From positions 1 to 27,269 of IMG/VR virus record IMGVR_UViG_2617270980_000004: DNA of 27,269 bases; one strand, 5' to 3'. This document shows, one piece after another, positions 1 through 14,754 of the stretch. The stretch's first letter is position 1, and the number at the start of each line of letters is the position of its first letter. The notes beneath the pieces are model-generated. The model was not told where the DNA came from. It worked only from the letters and a program-made list of their open reading frames with translations, and made no database searches. This stretch comes from a virus (Duplodnaviria > Heunggongvirae > Uroviricota > Caudoviricetes). The position numbers and the translations under genes were made by a program.

Positions 1-792
1 CAGCGACATCATCCGGATAAACGCAGTGCCCGTGCGCAGCACGACGACTGGCTGAAGAGAGAGATACAGCGCGTATACGATGAAAATCATCAGGTGTACG
101 GTGTGCGTAAAGTCTGGCGTCAGTTGTTACGGGAAGGAATCAGGGTGGCCAGATGTACAGTGGCACGTCTCATGGCGGTTATGGGACTTGCCGGTGTTCT
201 CCGGGGTAAAAAGGTCCGTACGACCATCAGCCGGAAAGCCGTTGCCGCAGGCGACCGCGTAAACCGTCAGTTCGTGGCAGAACGACCTGACCAGCTGTGG
301 GTGGCTGATTTTACTTACGTCAGCACATGGCAGGGCTTCGTCTATGTGGCGTTTATCATTGATGTGTTTGCCGGATACATCGTGGGGTGGCGGGTCTCAT
401 CGTCTATGGAAACGACATTCGTGCTGGATGCGCTGGAGCAGGCGTTGTGGGCCCGTCGTCCGTCTGGCACCATCCATCACAGCGATAAAGGCTCTCAGTA
501 TGTGTCACTGGCCTATACGGAGCGACTAAAAGAAGCCGGATTACTGGCATCAACAGGGAGTACAGGCGACTCGTATGACAACGCGATGGCTGAGAGCATC
601 AATGGTCTTTACAAAGCGGAGGTAATACACCGTAAGAGCTGGAAAAACCGTGCAGAAGTGGAACTGGCCACACTAACGTGGGTGGACTGGTATAACAATC
701 GACGATTGCTGGGAAGGCTGGGCCATACTCCTCCGGCAGAAGCAGAAAAAGCTTATTATGCTTCCATCGGAAACGATGATCTGGCAGCCTGA
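1..792 (+). CDS. IS3-family transposase OrfB (DDE integrase core), 5' partial
   Basis: Frame 1 is uninterrupted from the window start. Translation contains rve-type integrase core features (VADFTYV..., HSDKGSQY..., DNAMAESINGLYK) typical of IS3-family OrfB. Confidence 0.85.
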   Translation, partial: QRHHPDKRSARAQHDDWLKREIQRVYDENHQVYGVRKVWRQLLREGIRVARCTVARLMAVMGLAGVLRGKKVRTTISRKAVAAGDRVNRQFVAERPDQLWVADFTYVSTWQGFVYVAFIIDVFAGYIVGWRVSSSMETTFVLDALEQALWARRPSGTIHHSDKGSQYVSLAYTERLKEAGLLASTGSTGDSYDNAMAESINGLYKAEVIHRKSWKNRAEVELATLTWVDWYNNRRLLGRLGHTPPAEAEKAYYASIGNDDLAA

Positions 793-2149: not shown

Positions 2150-2650
2150 TTAGGCGCGACGACCCTTTTGCGCAGCTAGCCATCGCGCAACGATTTCTTC
2201 AATTGATTCTTTTTTCTCCTTCATTTCCTTAAGCATTTTCTCTTTATCTTCTTTGGGGAAAGCCCTGAACGTCTGGAGCAAATCCCGCTCCATGGGGTCT
2301 ATATTAAACGGAAGTTCGTTTTCCGATTGTTCCATATCTGCAGATATAGTGACAACATTGTCCTCCCCAGATTCTTGGGGATACATCCTTACAATTTGTA
2401 ACAACTCGGCCATATCTGGTCTGATTGACTCGGGAGGAACTTGCAGCAACCCTGCGAACTTGATAACAGCCTCAAGATTTAAAGGTGTCTGACCATTTAG
2501 ATAATGGCTTACAGCTCCCTGTGTCGAAAATCCCAGAATTTCTGCCGCACGCTCTTGGGTTAACCCTAGTTGATTTTTTTTCGCCGTCCAGATTTCTTTC
2601 AGTCTCTGGGCGGCTTGCAGGTCGATCTCTGACAGGGATTTTCTTTTCAT
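2150..2650 (-). CDS. prophage repressor, XRE-family helix-turn-helix, without a LexA/S24-type autocleavage domain (CI/RacR/PaaR-like)
   Basis: HTH segment LGLTQERAAEILGFSTQGAVSHYLNG; C-terminal 90 aa are acidic/lysine-rich with no Ser-Lys peptidase dyad. Divergent from the Cro-like gene across an operator-bearing intergenic region. Confidence 0.85.
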   Translation of the reverse strand: MKRKSLSEIDLQAAQRLKEIWTAKKNQLGLTQERAAEILGFSTQGAVSHYLNGQTPLNLEAVIKFAGLLQVPPESIRPDMAELLQIVRMYPQESGEDNVVTISADMEQSENELPFNIDPMERDLLQTFRAFPKEDKEKMLKEMKEKKESIEEIVARWLAAQKGRRA

Positions 2651-2685
2651 ACCTTCAATTCTAATAAGATTATTAATCTCTTTGA

Positions 2686-2700
2686 AATAGTGATGCTATT
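2686..2700. promoter_or_regulatory. OR-like operator site AATAGTG-A-TGCTATT
   Basis: Near-palindrome matching the OL site at 13 of 15 positions; lies in the repressor/cro intergenic region next to a TTGAAA -35-like hexamer. Confidence 0.5.
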
Positions 2701-2710
2701 TACTTTTAAA

Positions 2711-2725
2711 AATAACAATGCTATT
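2711..2725. promoter_or_regulatory. OR-like operator site AATAACA-A-TGCTATT
   Basis: Second copy of the operator motif, 25 bp from the first. Confidence 0.45.
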
Positions 2726-2732
2726 AATGATC

Positions 2733-2745
2733 GTGATGACATCAC
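2733..2745. promoter_or_regulatory. perfect 13-bp palindrome GTGATGACATCAC just upstream of the cro ribosome binding site
   Basis: Seen directly; sequence is distinct from the AATAGCA/TGCTATT operator family. Confidence 0.35.
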
Positions 2746-2757
2746 ATGAGGTGAACA

Positions 2758-3033
2758 ATGAATCTTGGAGAATATTTGCATCATTCCGGTATAACTCAGA
2801 AGCATTTTGCTGAAATTGTTGGGGTAACCCAAGGGATGGTAAGCCATGTCATTACCGGACGGGCGAAACTTACGGGGAAAAAAATTTTACGCTGGTGCGA
2901 AGCAACAGGCTGGATAGTAACTCCGCACGAGATTGATGGCAGTACTTATCCCAACCCAACCGACGGCTTACCTGTCGAGTATCAGGCTAACACACAACCA
3001 GAGGCGGGGGGGATTCATGAAAATCAAGCATGA
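2758..3033 (+). CDS. Cro-like HTH regulator (YdaS family by recall)
   Basis: HTH ITQKHFAEIVGVTQGMVSHVITG; GAGGTG Shine-Dalgarno; divergent from the repressor. Confidence 0.8.
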   Translation: MNLGEYLHHSGITQKHFAEIVGVTQGMVSHVITGRAKLTGKKILRWCEATGWIVTPHEIDGSTYPNPTDGLPVEYQANTQPEAGGIHENQA

Positions 3034-3442
3034 ACACATCCGCATGGCAATGAATGCCTGGGCGTATCCAGACGGTGAGAAAGTTCCAGCAGCTGAAATA
3101 GCCCGGACTTATTTCGAACTGGGGATGACGTTCCCGGAACTGTACGACGACAGCCATCCGGAAGCCCTGGCCCGTAATACCCAGAAAATTTTCCGCTGGG
3201 TAGAGAAAGACACCCCTGATGCAGTTGAAAAAATTCAGGCGTTGTTACCAGCGATCGAAAAGGCAATGCCACCTTTGCTGGTGGCCAGAATGCGCAGCCA
3301 CAGTTCAGCTTATTTTCGGGAGCTGGTGGAGACGCGGGAGCGACTGGTGAGAGACGCTGATGATTTTGTCGCAGTGGCAATCGCCGGTTTCAATCAGATG
3401 AACCGTGGTGGCCCGGCAGGAAATGCTGTGGCAGTACATTGA
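3017..3442 (+). CDS. YdaT-like protein (CII-position gene of Rac-type immunity regions)
   Basis: Internal ATG at 3017 preceded by a G-rich Shine-Dalgarno. N-terminus MKIKHEHIR matches my recollection of Rac-prophage YdaT. The ORF-track start at 2933 is rejected because it lies inside cro. Confidence 0.7.
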   Translation: MKIKHEHIRMAMNAWAYPDGEKVPAAEIARTYFELGMTFPELYDDSHPEALARNTQKIFRWVEKDTPDAVEKIQALLPAIEKAMPPLLVARMRSHSSAYFRELVETRERLVRDADDFVAVAIAGFNQMNRGGPAGNAVAVH

Positions 3443-3513
3443 CTGACAATAGCCATATCGAATCGCTTCCGGCAACTCGTGAGTAAAAAGATTCGGTATC
3501 AGAAGAGGTGAGT

Positions 3514-4530
3514 ATGGCTAACGCCTGGCTCAGATTATGGCATGACATGCCAAATGACCCTAAGTGGCGAACAATTGCCAGGGTGTCAGGGCAGCCAATT
3601 GCAACAGTGATGGCAGTGTATATCCACCTCCTGGTGAGCGCGTCACGAAATGTCACGCGAGGTCACATTGATGTCACGACAGAAGATTTGGCAAGTGCGC
3701 TCGACGTGACAGAAGAGGTAATTGATTCAATTTTGCAGACGATGCAGGGGCGGGTACTTGATGGTGATTTAATCACTGGATGGGAAAAACGCCAGGTGCT
3801 TAAAGAGGACAACGGCAATATTTCGCAAACCGCAAAATCTCCGGCAGAGCGCAAGAGGGCGCAGCGTGAGAGGGAAAGAAAGCGGGAACAAAATGGCGAT
3901 TGTCACGGCGCGTCACGAAATGTCACGCACATGTCACGACAAGTCACGACAGATAAAGATACAGATACAGAATTAAACCCCACACATAACGCGCGCATGC
4001 GCGAGAGTGCTCCAACCGGTGAGTCGCATGGTGCGCCGTTGCAGACAGCCGAACCTGAATACCTGGACGGCCTGAGCGAACCGATCGGGAAATTTTCGAT
4101 GACTACTGTCTGGCAGCTGTCGTCGGATTTTCGACAACGGGCAGCAGTGTGGGGTATGGCTCTGCCTGAGCCGGAATTTACACCTGCAGAGCTTGCCGCA
4201 TTCCGGGATTACTGGATGGCGGAGGGGAAGGTTTTCACGCAGGTTCAGTGGGAGCAGAAATTTGCCCGCCACGTGCAGCACGTCAGGGCACAGGTAAAAC
4301 CAGTCAGCAAGGGGGTAAGCCATGCAGCATCAGGTGGCACGGCATCACGGGCAGTTCAGGAAATCCGGGCAGCACGCGAACAGTGGGAACGTGACAACGG
4401 ATTTATCAGCAACGGAAACGGCCTGGAAGCTGTGGGAGCTTATGGGGGAGGTGTATTCGAACCGCTGGACACAGAAGAACGGGGCCGCACCTTCGAAGCT
4501 CTGGATTGCCCAGATTGGCGCGATGACTGA
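3514..4530 (+). CDS. replication initiator, O-like/YdaU-like, with internal origin iterons
   Basis: ATG at 3514 with AGAGGTG Shine-Dalgarno; N-terminal winged-helix-like region; two iteron clusters plus an AT-rich tract embedded in the coding sequence, as in lambda O. Confidence 0.7.
   Translation: MANAWLRLWHDMPNDPKWRTIARVSGQPIATVMAVYIHLLVSASRNVTRGHIDVTTEDLASALDVTEEVIDSILQTMQGRVLDGDLITGWEKRQVLKEDNGNISQTAKSPAERKRAQRERERKREQNGDCHGASRNVTHMSRQVTTDKDTDTELNPTHNARMRESAPTGESHGAPLQTAEPEYLDGLSEPIGKFSMTTVWQLSSDFRQRAAVWGMALPEPEFTPAELAAFRDYWMAEGKVFTQVQWEQKFARHVQHVRAQVKPVSKGVSHAASGGTASRAVQEIRAAREQWERDNGFISNGNGLEAVGAYGGGVFEPLDTEERGRTFEALDCPDWRDD
3638..3980. repeat. putative replication origin: two iteron clusters of GTCACG at roughly 10-bp spacing, followed by an AT-rich segment
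   Basis: GTCACG/GTCACA at 3642, 3652, 3662, 3673 and at 3902, 3912, 3922, 3932, 3942; a 19-bp direct repeat GCGTCACGAAATGTCACGC at 3640 and 3910; AT-rich GATAAAGATACAGATACAGAATTAAA from 3952. Confidence 0.5.
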
Positions 4531-4984
4531 ACAGCAAATCCGGCTGGTCTGCCGTCAGTGCATGGACCGCTGCCGGGCGGGTGAAACGTGGCCCCCGGAC
4601 CTGGCTGAGTTTGTTGCACTGATTTCGGAGAGTGGGGCAAATCCATTTGGTCTTACGGTGGATGCAGTGATGGAAGAGTACCGGCGCTGGCGCAATGAAT
4701 CCTGGCGATACGACGGGAGTGATAAATACCCGTGGCCACAGCCTGTGCTGTACCACATCTGCCTCGAAATGCGTACCAGAGGGATTGAGCGCCAGATGAC
4801 GCAGGGTGAGTTAAAACGACTTGCGGAACGGCAACTGACGAAATGGGCAAAGCATGTTGGTAACGGGATGAGTGTTCCGCCAGTGCGACGACAACTGGAA
4901 GGGGCGAAACACCCGCAAGGGCCAACGCCAATTGAACGGCTGAAACAGGAATACGAACGCCGGAAGGCAGCTGGTTTTATTTGA
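4322..4984 (+). CDS. lambda P-like replication protein (helicase loader)
   Basis: C-terminal half aligns by eye with lambda P as I recall it (WPPDLAEFVAL against PSPGQFVAWCRE; YDGSDKYPWPQ against YPDAESYPWKS). AAGGGGG Shine-Dalgarno before ATG 4322. Start uncertain (4322, 4334 or 4443) and overlaps the O-like gene. Confidence 0.65.
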   Translation: MQHQVARHHGQFRKSGQHANSGNVTTDLSATETAWKLWELMGEVYSNRWTQKNGAAPSKLWIAQIGAMTEQQIRLVCRQCMDRCRAGETWPPDLAEFVALISESGANPFGLTVDAVMEEYRRWRNESWRYDGSDKYPWPQPVLYHICLEMRTRGIERQMTQGELKRLAERQLTKWAKHVGNGMSVPPVRRQLEGAKHPQGPTPIERLKQEYERRKAAGFI

Positions 4985-7039: not shown

Positions 7040-7217
7040 TTTTATGGATCACCTTTCTGATTGATTTCATATTGGCGAGGTGACGTGAGTTAAGTAGAAT
7101 TGCTGCGGGTGCCTGAGGCTGTCTGCCTCAGGCATGAACACCAAAAGGCAGATAGAGAAAGCCCCAGTTAACATTACGCGTCCTGTAAGACGCTCAACAT
7201 TAATCTGAGGCATATGG

Positions 7218-8342
7218 ATGCGGATGAAAGAATTAAATAAATTCAGAGTGATAGACCTCTTTTGTGGGGCAGGTGGATTATCTTATGGTTTTCTTCATGG
7301 AGAGATGTCTGACTACTTTGAAAGTATCCTTGCTATTGATAATAATGCTGCAGCTATAAATACCTACAATGCCAATTTTGGTTTGCATGGAGTTCAGGCA
7401 AATATTGAGGAGTGGGCATCCAGCAATACTGTTCCTGAGGCTGATGTGGTCATAGGTGGCCCCCCGTGTCAGGGATTCAGTTTATTAAATAAGAATCGTT
7501 ATGGTGATCACCGAAGAGCATTGTGGGAGCCTTATATGGATGTCATTGAGCGTTCAAGGGCTTGTATGTTCGTCATGGAAAATGTCCCCGGATTGCTGAT
7601 AAGCGATGAGTTTGCGGACATTACGTTTAGAGCGAAATCCATGGGCTTTATTCTGCTTAATCCAATGGTGTTGAATACTGCTGACTATGGAGTACCTCAG
7701 ACAAGAAAACGAACGATAGCAATCGGTATCAAACGAGAACTCTTCGATGTGCATAGTATTCCGGCGTTCCCGCCAGCACCAACGCATCGTTCCCCTGATA
7801 AGGATGTCGCTTTGCCTGAATGGGTCTGTACGCGTGATGCAATTGGTGACTTACCTGCTCCTGTTGGAACTGATATTCGTAATGAACTTCCTCCGCTGAA
7901 CTTACATTTTGGGCGTAATCCCACACCTGTTTCTTTGGAGCGATATAAAGCGGTTCCACCAGGAGGTAACCGTTTCGATTTACAGAAAAAAAGACCTGAT
8001 ATAACCCCGGCGTGCTGGCTAAAAAAGAAATCTGGAGGGACCGATTTGTTTGGACGTCTGTGGTGGGACAGACCTTCAGTAACGATTCGTACTGAGTTTT
8101 TCAAACCGGAGAAAGGGCGATATTTACATCCGGAAGAGGATCGGCCAATAACTCATCGTGAGGCAGCGAGATTAATGTCTTTTCCTGATAATTTCATTTT
8201 TACCGGTTCAAAAACTGAGATTGCAAAGCAGATCGGGAATGCTGTTCCACCGCTATTTGCGGCAAAAATCGCACAATATGTGTATGGAGTTTTGCAGGGA
8301 CGGTATAAGAATAACATCAGTAAGAATAGTCAAGCAGCCTGA
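7218..8342 (+). CDS. DNA (cytosine-5)-methyltransferase
   Basis: Canonical m5C motifs: I FCGAGGLSYGF, IV GGPPCQGFS, VI ENV, VIII QTRKR, X GNAVPP. Confidence 0.9.
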   Translation: MRMKELNKFRVIDLFCGAGGLSYGFLHGEMSDYFESILAIDNNAAAINTYNANFGLHGVQANIEEWASSNTVPEADVVIGGPPCQGFSLLNKNRYGDHRRALWEPYMDVIERSRACMFVMENVPGLLISDEFADITFRAKSMGFILLNPMVLNTADYGVPQTRKRTIAIGIKRELFDVHSIPAFPPAPTHRSPDKDVALPEWVCTRDAIGDLPAPVGTDIRNELPPLNLHFGRNPTPVSLERYKAVPPGGNRFDLQKKRPDITPACWLKKKSGGTDLFGRLWWDRPSVTIRTEFFKPEKGRYLHPEEDRPITHREAARLMSFPDNFIFTGSKTEIAKQIGNAVPPLFAAKIAQYVYGVLQGRYKNNISKNSQAA

Positions 8343-13609: not shown

Positions 13610-13685
13610 GGCCCTTTAGCTCAGTGGTGAGAGCGAGCGACTCATAATCGCCAGGTCGCTGGTTCAAATCCAGCAAGGGCCACCA
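13610..13685 (+). tRNA. tRNA with CAU anticodon (resembles E. coli minor Ile tRNA ileX/ileZ by recall; Met not excluded)
   Basis: Cloverleaf folds by hand: acceptor GGCCCTT/AAGGGCC, D arm GCTC...GAGC, anticodon loop CTCATAA, T arm GCTGG TTCAAAT CCAGC, 3' CCA encoded. Confidence 0.85.
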
Positions 13686-13785
13686 TCACAAACCGCCATT
13701 AGCTTATCAGGAAGAGCAGACGACACGATAACAGGGTTGTTGGTGCGGGGGCGGGTCCCCGATGGCGGTCCATTATCGGTATTCA

Positions 13786-13862
13786 GCGTTGTTAGCTCAG
13801 CCGGACAGAGCAATTGCCTTCTAAGCAATCGGTCACTGGTTCGAATCCAGTACAGCGCGCCA
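13786..13862 (+). tRNA. tRNA-Arg (anticodon UCU)
   Basis: Cloverleaf folds by hand: acceptor GCGTTGT/ACAGCGC, anticodon stem ATTGC/GCAAT with loop CTTCTAA, T arm ACTGG TTCGAAT CCAGT, 3' CCA encoded. Confidence 0.85.
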
Positions 13863-14326: not shown

Positions 14327-14717
14327 ATACATATCTGGATTATCACCGGTTACGGTAAAAAGTGATTGCTTACTGTTTTTGTGAATGGCATTGCAGCAGC
14401 CGGATAATGTCAGTGCTGGCTGACGGTGTGCTGGTGGCGGGGGTGGTGGTTGCTGCTTTCCCGTTGCTGAAAAAGAAAACGCCAGACTGTTAGCCGGGTA
14501 TCAGTTAGCGGGAGAAATTTTTAAATACTTCACAATTCAGGCGGTTGACTGTTGTCTGGTTTGCGGGGAGTTTGTTAAAAGAAACTGGCATGGTGAATCC
14601 CCCTGTGCGGAGGGGCAATCAGCGAGTAGGTATATGGGATAATCGCGGATTCAGGTGCTGGTACTGAATTCACCGGGAGGCACCCGGCACCATGCAATGG
14701 CACATAGCGCCACTCTC

Positions 14718-14754
14718 CAGCCCCTCTCCGGAGGGGCTGTTTATATTGATTTTG
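14718..14754 (+). terminator. strong rho-independent terminator in the cargo island
   Basis: Perfect 9-bp stem CAGCCCCTC/GAGGGGCTG with TCCG loop, followed by TTTATATTGATTTT. Confidence 0.6.

Follow-up and report, generated by a model that had tools for sequence, protein, structure and literature searches.

A probable replication origin of GTCACG iterons inside the initiator gene of a lambdoid Escherichia coli prophage

The stretch of DNA studied here (27,269 nucleotides; IMG/VR record IMGVR_UViG_2617270980_000004, positions 1 to 27,269; hereafter the window) is a lambdoid prophage that adjoins potC in E. coli strain C7. Its initiator gene, as defined by open reading frame, translation and domain searches, occupies positions 3514–4530 on the + strand and encodes 338 amino acids. 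Within this gene lie two clusters of short direct repeats with the core GTCACG, a single inverted copy between them and an A-rich tract that abuts the second cluster. This segment is very probably the vegetative replication origin of the prophage, located inside the gene of its own initiator.

A pattern search found nine GTCACR cores on the + strand. Four of them form cluster 1 (3642–3678), starting at 3642, 3652, 3662 (the sole GTCACA) and 3673, and five GTCACG cores form cluster 2 (3902–3948), starting at 3902, 3912, 3922, 3933 and 3943 within the codons of the inter-domain linker. The core-to-core spacing is 10, 10 and 11 bp in cluster 1 and 10, 10, 11 and 10 bp in cluster 2. Independently of the pattern search, Tandem Repeats Finder reported a period-10 array at 3901–3951 with the consensus TGTCACGACA. 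The repeat unit is 10–11 bp long and has an asymmetric 6-bp core with weakly conserved flanks. An initial annotation of the window had proposed these nine copies, in two clusters and with this spacing, and both direct reading and the pattern search bear it out. It had missed a tenth copy, a single inverted core at 3705–3710 (- strand; CGTGAC on the + strand). It had also described a 19-bp direct repeat; the repeat exists, but direct reading gives an exact length of 21 bp, GCGCGTCACGAAATGTCACGC, at 3638–3658 and 3908–3928 on the + strand (repeat family D1). The peptide segments that it listed as repeated, SRNVTRGHIDVTT (aa 44–56) and SRNVTHMSRQVTT (aa 134–146), are both present in the translation. 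Over the whole window the number of GTCACR hexamers is at chance level (26 observed versus 27 expected). Their clustering is another matter: 10 copies fall within 310 bp (Poisson probability about 1e-12), while none of 1000 dinucleotide-preserving shuffles had more than 5.

The encoded protein consists of an N-terminal, replisome-organizer-like domain (N-domain; aa 1–95), a basic helix (aa 110–130), a disordered linker (aa 129–151) and a DnaT-like single-stranded DNA (ssDNA)-binding domain (aa 194–260, window 4093–4293). In an AlphaFold2 model the N-terminal 95 residues are predicted to adopt a helical, winged-helix-like fold, while the linker is predicted to be disordered, with predicted local distance difference test scores below 50. 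Cluster 1 is read as aa 43–55, which the model places at the end of helix 3 and in the following loop of the winged-helix domain, and the inverted core encodes D64-V65-T66 in the turn of the helix-turn-helix. Cluster 2 encodes the linker. The C-terminal assignment is firm: the DnaT domain PF17948 matches aa 194–260 with 54.8 bits against a cut-off of 25 (8e-15), and the DnaT chains 6aep, 4ou6 and 9zbt in the PDB match the initiator at 1e-18 to 1e-19. Identical E. coli copies are annotated by the Prokaryotic Genome Annotation Pipeline (PGAP) as 'DnaT-like ssDNA-binding domain-containing protein'. At the level of the family, the label is 'replication initiation protein' in PHROG and, for cluster members, 'phage replisome organizer' at NCBI.

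The comparative results place the selection at the repeats on the DNA sequence itself rather than on the protein. Four, two and three copies of the hexamer are read in frames 0, 1 and 2, respectively, and a hexamer that occurs in all three frames is not a peptide repeat. Synonymous sites were compared across 23 homologues belonging to different genera, aligned by codon and sharing a mean pairwise nucleotide identity of 66%. The fraction of sequences using the major codon was 0.95 at the 14 codons with a third base inside a core and 0.56 at 78 conserved-residue codons outside the cores (Mann–Whitney p = 4e-8). The codons of Val47 (GTC), Thr48 (ACG), Gly50 (GGT) and His51 (CAC) are each identical in 23 of 23 sequences, and Val65, which lies in the inverted core, is encoded by GTG in 21 of 21. 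Outside the cores, the codons for Leu, Arg, Pro and Val are spread over four to six synonyms. The A-rich tract likewise has frozen GAT and AAA codons in the codon alignment. A DNA alignment of the window with phage Tritos, two Pseudomonas phages and an Aeromonas phage (about 70% identity) gave the same picture: the cores, the inverted copy and AGATAAAGATA(C/A)AGA are invariant, while the spacers and the surrounding codons drift.

These data bear directly on the proposal that the repeats are the by-product of a needed peptide motif (SRNVT...VTT), with an incidental periodicity in the DNA. In its favor, the encoded residues A43, S44, N46, V47, T48, R49, G50, H51, V54 and T55 show no or almost no variation across the subfamily, and part of the conservation could therefore be at the protein level. 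The results on synonymous sites and reading frames argue otherwise, since the freezing is confined to the cores and the hexamer is read in all three frames. Moreover, the linker encoded by cluster 2 is predicted to be disordered, and other subfamilies replace the peptide completely, yet keep the 10-bp phasing of the DNA. The peptide-repeat explanation was rejected on the strength of the frames and the synonymous sites, and its probability is close to negligible.

Relatives of the N-domain were collected in a scan of one genome per species, which yielded 50 loci. About 25 of these, together with phage relatives, are of the GTCACG type and carry GTCACR at the gene positions seen in the window, namely 129, 139, 149 and 160 (+), 192 (-) and approximately 387–430 (+); the inverted copy at position 192 is kept in most of them. 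The 188 sites compared define 137 intervals within clusters, and 133 of these measure 10 or 11 bp. Conserved repeat positions were observed in Shigella, E. albertii, Serratia, Rahnella, Bordetella, Pseudomonas, Acidovorax, Chromobacterium and others. More distant N-domains without GTCACG have GTAACG, CGAACG(C), ACTACG or AACGCC at the equivalent two places and with equal phasing. These alternative hexamers were recovered by an unsupervised search for the best phased hexamer, with no prior knowledge of its sequence. The loop peptide encoded by cluster 1 changes with the iteron type, from SRNVTRGH (GTCACG) to SNATERGRTQ (CGAACG) and CNAVKRGETQCNA (GTAACG), while the rest of the domain is conserved. 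The region at approximately gene nt 320–700 is notable in two distant relatives, in a Serratia metagenome-assembled genome (L050) and a Pantoea sp. (L057), which lack cluster 1 and carry ACTACG repeats; the protein of both runs into a YVYYVA...GISRNPWAR segment, by resemblance a candidate GIY-YIG-type nuclease motif.

The repeat sequence tracks only the N-domain. Across 24 loci of the GTCACG type, the N-domains make up a single similarity cluster, while there are nine unrelated clusters of C-terminal parts, 15 of downstream genes and 16 of upstream genes. In Pseudomonas phage phita81A, for example, a GTCACG-type N-domain and its iterons are paired with a Toprim-DnaB primase-helicase. The converse combination is found in ydaU of Rac-SA53, which has a DnaT-type C-terminal half like that of the window joined to a DUF1376 N-domain, and (A/G)TGTTCAAACA repeats at the equivalent place. 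K-12 ydaU, with a DUF1376 N-domain and a different C-terminal half, has the same TGTTCAAAC repeats as SA53, directly before a GATAMAGAT tract. The initiator of PPompW has an HTH_36 N-domain and six ACCCAAA repeats at the equivalent place; the GATAMAGAT tract was not found in this initiator. Such a pattern, in which the repeats follow the N-domain alone, is expected for an initiator and its iterons. The PPompW repeats deserve a remark in their own right. The replication gene of this Stx2a phage (L007 2514–3554) combines the HTH_36-type N-domain with the same DnaT-like C-terminal domain, and its six ACCCAAA copies lie at gene nt 292–483, just before the junction; they are probably the iteron set of the PPompW-type initiator.

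Copy number and distance vary among the relatives. E. albertii NBRC 107761 (L010 2625–2700) has a 21-bp insertion in cluster 1 that creates two extra in-phase cores, giving six in total, one of them GTCACT, and adds seven residues (TCHGVSL) to the winged-helix loop. It has a parallel in the O protein of Stx phages, where two extra iterons come with 13 extra residues (PMC7466680). Cluster 2 has 3, 4 or 5 copies in relatives and 6 in some viral contigs. The distance between the clusters ranges from 250 to 350 bp, and no conserved helical phase between them was found among the relatives, although no proper test of it was made.

The tract to the right of cluster 2 (3949–3978, + strand) is built of ACAGAT/AAAGAT units and encodes DKDTDTEL. 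It contains about four ACAGAT units, is 73% A+T with a strong excess of A on the + strand, and was reported by Tandem Repeats Finder as a period-6 array (ACAGAT) at 3949–3971. It is the least stable 30-mer of the region 3400–4600 and falls in the 99th percentile of the window. The AT-rich tract of the initial annotation is therefore real, but it is short, at about 30 bp. It is invariant in the alignment of E. coli, Pseudomonas and Aeromonas phages, and it also follows the unrelated iterons of K-12 and SA53 ydaU and of numerous subfamily members; one distant relative (L049) has as many as nine AGATAA units. An exact 15-mer of the tract was found in 116 viral contigs. At least three phased hexamers lie within 130 nt upstream of it in 37 of these and downstream of it in none; the other 79 have no upstream phased repeats and many of the matches are probably due to chance, so the tract alone is not diagnostic. 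It is the probable DNA-unwinding element. A 12-bp perfect GC-rich palindrome, CGCGCATGCGCG, is located about 15 bp to the right of the tract (3992–4003). It is part of the Rac-type C-module, is imperfect in Rac-SA53 and recalls the inverted repeat to the right of the lambda AT-rich region.

The tract is also where two modules meet. Megablast found window 3400–3971 to be 99% identical to phages Evi, Tritos and vB_EcoS-640R1 (query 1–572), and window 3951/3974–4600 to be 86–88% identical to ydaU-ydaV of Rac-SA53 and PPompW (query 552/558/575–1201). The two sets of matches overlap at 3951–3971 (+), in the (GATAMA)n tract, which defines the mosaic junction. The A-rich tract is thus at once a conserved functional element and the site where N-modules and C-modules are swapped. 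It might be argued that tract and repeats serve mainly as a recombination linker for such swaps, with no direct role in initiation. The breakpoint inside the tract, the presence of the tract after unrelated N-domains and the hybrid junctions that the lambda record marks just to the right of its iterons all speak for a linker. Nevertheless, this explanation is highly improbable, because it accounts neither for the helical phasing nor for the strict conservation of the cores or the co-variation of iterons and N-domain. A functional element that phages share would be expected to become a junction, and a junction at the tract is in keeping with an origin.

Taken as an origin, the segment would work as follows. 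Monomers of the initiator would bind the 6-bp GTCACG cores through their N-terminal winged-helix domain, and because the cores recur once per helical turn, the initiators would be aligned on one face of the DNA. The five copies at 3902–3948 would form the main array, and the four direct copies and one inverted copy 260 bp upstream an auxiliary one. The resulting nucleoprotein complex, an analog of the O-some, would melt the tract at 3949–3978 with the help of rightward transcription from a cro-side promoter; the upstream immunity and early region would drive this transcription through the origin. The DnaT-like C-terminal domain could then hold the single strand, dock the P-like loader, or both, and the loader (4523–4984) would deliver the host DnaB. 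Cluster 2 is the probable core origin array. Looping, cooperativity or autoregulation are possible tasks for cluster 1 and its inverted copy, which may act as an auxiliary array. Two extensions of this scheme are rather doubtful. In the first, the loop encoded by cluster 1 would help to recognize its own coding sequence, so that site and reader change in one mutational step. In the second, the clusters, separated by 260 bp or about 25 turns, would together form a looped or wrapped complex unlike the single array of lambda.

The repeats could instead be initiator or regulator sites that serve control, through autoregulation, titration or handcuffing, or a transcription roadblock in the early operon, with the true origin located elsewhere. 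Cluster 1 and the inverted copy, which lack their own unwinding element and are separated from the A-rich tract by 230–260 bp, are consistent with this proposal. So is the known behavior of plasmid and lambda iterons, which titrate initiators and cause exclusion phenotypes (PMC3349717). Cluster 2, however, abuts the conserved and least stable A-rich tract, and this pairing is kept when the iteron sequence changes. In addition, no other phased repeat array was seen within the scanned region 3400–4600, and control and firing roles can coexist. A purely regulatory function is accordingly judged improbable.

Several observations weigh against the assignment of the segment as an origin. Besides the near-invariance of the repeat-encoded residues described above, there are the results of the homology searches with the N-domain. 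PF09681 was aligned over positions 1–119 of 121 of the model but scored 16.6 bits against a cut-off of 23.3 (E = 0.008), and TIGR01714 scored 18.5 against 49.8, both being sub-threshold. In hhalign comparisons the probability of homology to lambda O was 0.09% (alignment A3), and SPP1 G38P gave no match. A profile search of PDB sequences with the N-domain returned nothing at E up to 1, and Foldseek with the AlphaFold2 model against the PDB returned only winged-helix regulators, at non-significant values (E of at least 0.2). With no significant match to O or G38P and a sub-threshold organizer match, the DNA-binding role of the domain rests on the fold prediction and on co-variation. Five of the distant relatives (L035, L038, L049, L052 and L053) have no obvious phased hexamer in the unsupervised search. 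The tract is only about 30 bp long at 73% A+T, and several intergenic stretches of the window are less stable. Finally, that the initiator binds the repeats and that the fragment replicates are steps that we infer, as are unwinding, helicase loading and the role of cluster 1. Set against the frozen synonymous sites and the co-variation with the N-domain, these points leave an in-gene origin as a very likely assignment.

Other kinds of element were also looked for. A DnaA-assisted origin was rejected, there being no match to TTATNCACA with up to one mismatch in 3400–4600 and a window-wide count at chance level. No Rfam family reached its gathering score in the same region. Simple scans for an internal promoter or terminator gave one weak promoter-like site on the minus strand (3926–3899) and minus-strand hairpins at 3978–4006, with counts near the shuffle expectation. 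Membership of the lambda O family was likewise rejected: PF04492 (Phage_rep_O) has no match in the initiator at E up to 10, while lambda O itself scores 5.7e-36.

Origins inside the initiator gene are known from lambda (PMC7466680), P22 and L (PMC8022706) and SPP1 (PMC5737612, PMC6316719). The initial annotation had compared the locus with ori-lambda, and the comparison holds for the layout of in-gene iterons, a meltable A-rich tract and a downstream P-like loader gene, with the frozen synonymous sites and the N-domain co-variation as comparative evidence. The origin of lambda and the probable origin of the window both occupy a central part of the initiator gene, coding for the linker that joins the DNA-binding N-domain to a C-domain that contacts the loader, and each array of direct repeats has an AT-rich unwinding tract behind it. 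The iterons occupy gene nt 349–433 in the lambda record and 389–435 (cluster 2) in the window. A P-family loader gene (PF06992) follows directly downstream, the gene order is that of cI, cro, the cII position, initiator and loader, and hybrid junctions adjoin the origin in both; the lambda record marks them just right of the iterons. The likeness does not extend to the initiator and its iterons. The protein of the window is not a homolog of O and its C-domain is DnaT-like; its units are 10–11 bp with an asymmetric 6-bp core, whereas the lambda iterons are 18–19 bp and dyad-symmetric. The initiator gene here contains ten copies, nine direct and one inverted, grouped in two clusters that lie 260 bp apart, the first of them inside the coding sequence of the DNA-binding domain, while lambda has a single array and no such cluster. 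The unwinding tract is about 40 bp in lambda and about 30 bp here.

SPP1 oriL offers a second parallel, with iterons (AB boxes) and an adjacent AT-rich unwinding element inside gene 38, which encodes G38P, followed by loader and helicase genes (PMC5737612, PMC6316719). The protein family of the window is the one named 'phage replisome organizer' and 'replication initiation protein', and some members of its N-domain family carry the Phg_2220_C C-terminal domain of G38P. There is, however, no detectable sequence relation to G38P, and host, iteron sequence and loader type all differ. In SPP1 the second site bound by G38P, oriR, lies far off in the genome, whereas both clusters of the window are in one gene. 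Gene 18 of P22 and of L is a lambdoid initiator gene that in each phage has its own distinct repeats. In phage L, six imprecise copies of an 11-bp unit, TGTCCAACGGA, have been read as an origin from the sequence (PMC8022706), so that both the unit length and the kind of evidence resemble those of the window. The repeat sequence is different, and P22 and L have their own DnaB-type helicase (gp12) instead of a P-like loader.

The closest relation on the C-terminal side is to Rac. The C-terminal half of the initiator and the loader share 86–88% DNA identity with Rac-SA53 ydaU/ydaV, and ydaU of both K-12 and SA53 carries a GATACAGATAAAGAT-type tract at the same place, after its own (A/G)TGTTCAAACA repeats; the N-domain (DUF1376) and the repeats are unrelated to those of the window. 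In K-12 ydaU (L001 4268–4640; NC_000913.3 ~1,421,267–1,421,640) three direct copies and one inverted copy of (A/G)TGTTCAAACA precede a GATACAGATAAAGAT tract at gene nt 487. Rac is reported to have an active origin, oriJ (PMC3945230). From their sequence, the ydaU repeats and tract look like the location of oriJ, which is unannotated in the K-12 record.

The architecture itself is well known from lambda, P22, L and SPP1. Here it is found in an initiator family whose origin seems to be undescribed. A search of an incomplete literature library found no paper on GTCACG iterons or on the mapping of oriJ onto ydaU, papers on the Eru replication types of Stx phages do not mention origins or DnaT, and no origin is annotated at the initiator locus in the E. 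coli, phage and plasmid records inspected. With the origin located, studies of prophage induction and attempts to block it would have a defined target, also in lambdoid phages related to Shiga toxin, and shared iterons predict incompatibility or initiator titration between co-resident prophages. The position of the origin would also explain why short-read assemblies break and mosaic junctions occur there. The most reusable by-products are the iteron-encoded loop and the natural series of matched initiator–iteron pairs (GTCACG, GTAACG, CGAACG and ACTACG) on a conserved scaffold; from this series a recognition code could be derived or orthogonal replicons designed. The locus is also a clear example of DNA that determines part of a protein sequence, which bears on annotation and on analyses of evolutionary rate.

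Downstream, the lambda-P-like helicase loader gene (4523–4984, +) starts within the end of the initiator gene. Its product matches PF06992 (Phage_lambda_P) with 58 bits against a cut-off of 26 (1.3e-15) and phrog_109 ('P-like helicase loader') at 1e-62, and PGAP names it 'replication protein P' at the equivalent coordinates. Upstream is the immunity and early-regulator region (2150–3442), assigned from Pfam matches to HTH_3 and YdaT_toxin and from the PGAP annotation of the identical prophage. It comprises a cI-like repressor (2150–2650, -), a cro-like gene (2758–3033, +) and a YdaT-family gene at the cII position (3017–3442, +), so that the order is cI, cro, cII-position gene, initiator and P-like loader. 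Of 5426 complete E. coli genomes, 658 have the full module and 2564 a part of it, at up to six places per genome. Its relatives occur in prophages across many Proteobacteria.

Two circular 50.9-kb elements of P. aeruginosa, CP124671.1 (L264) and CP137943.1, have been deposited as plasmids and are lambdoid phage genomes. In both, the GTCACG-type N-domain module precedes a gene for a DnaB-like helicase, and neither has a typed plasmid replicon. They provide circumstantial support for autonomous replication by the module. A very large number of database copies of the initiator are labeled 'partial' and derive from short contigs, among them a cluster of 1121 members on a 683-bp contig. It would seem that breaks within the initiator gene are routine in short-read assemblies, probably because several co-resident prophages have one half of the mosaic in common.

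Elsewhere in the window, a RelE/ParE-family toxin and RelB antitoxin pair (1651–2132, -) lies between the early-left genes and the cI-like repressor, according to PGAP of the identical prophage in strain C7. A match to the Rfam sok antitoxin RNA at 7107–7287 (+), with 61 bits just over the gathering score, is found beside a hokD-type toxin gene in the nin-like region. At 13610–13862 (+) and 14559–14748 (+) there are two phage-borne tRNA genes, one with the anticodon CAT (tRNA-Ile in PGAP) and a tRNA-Arg with the anticodon TCT; the small RNA family STnc100 has a strong match (132 bits) that precedes the lysis region.

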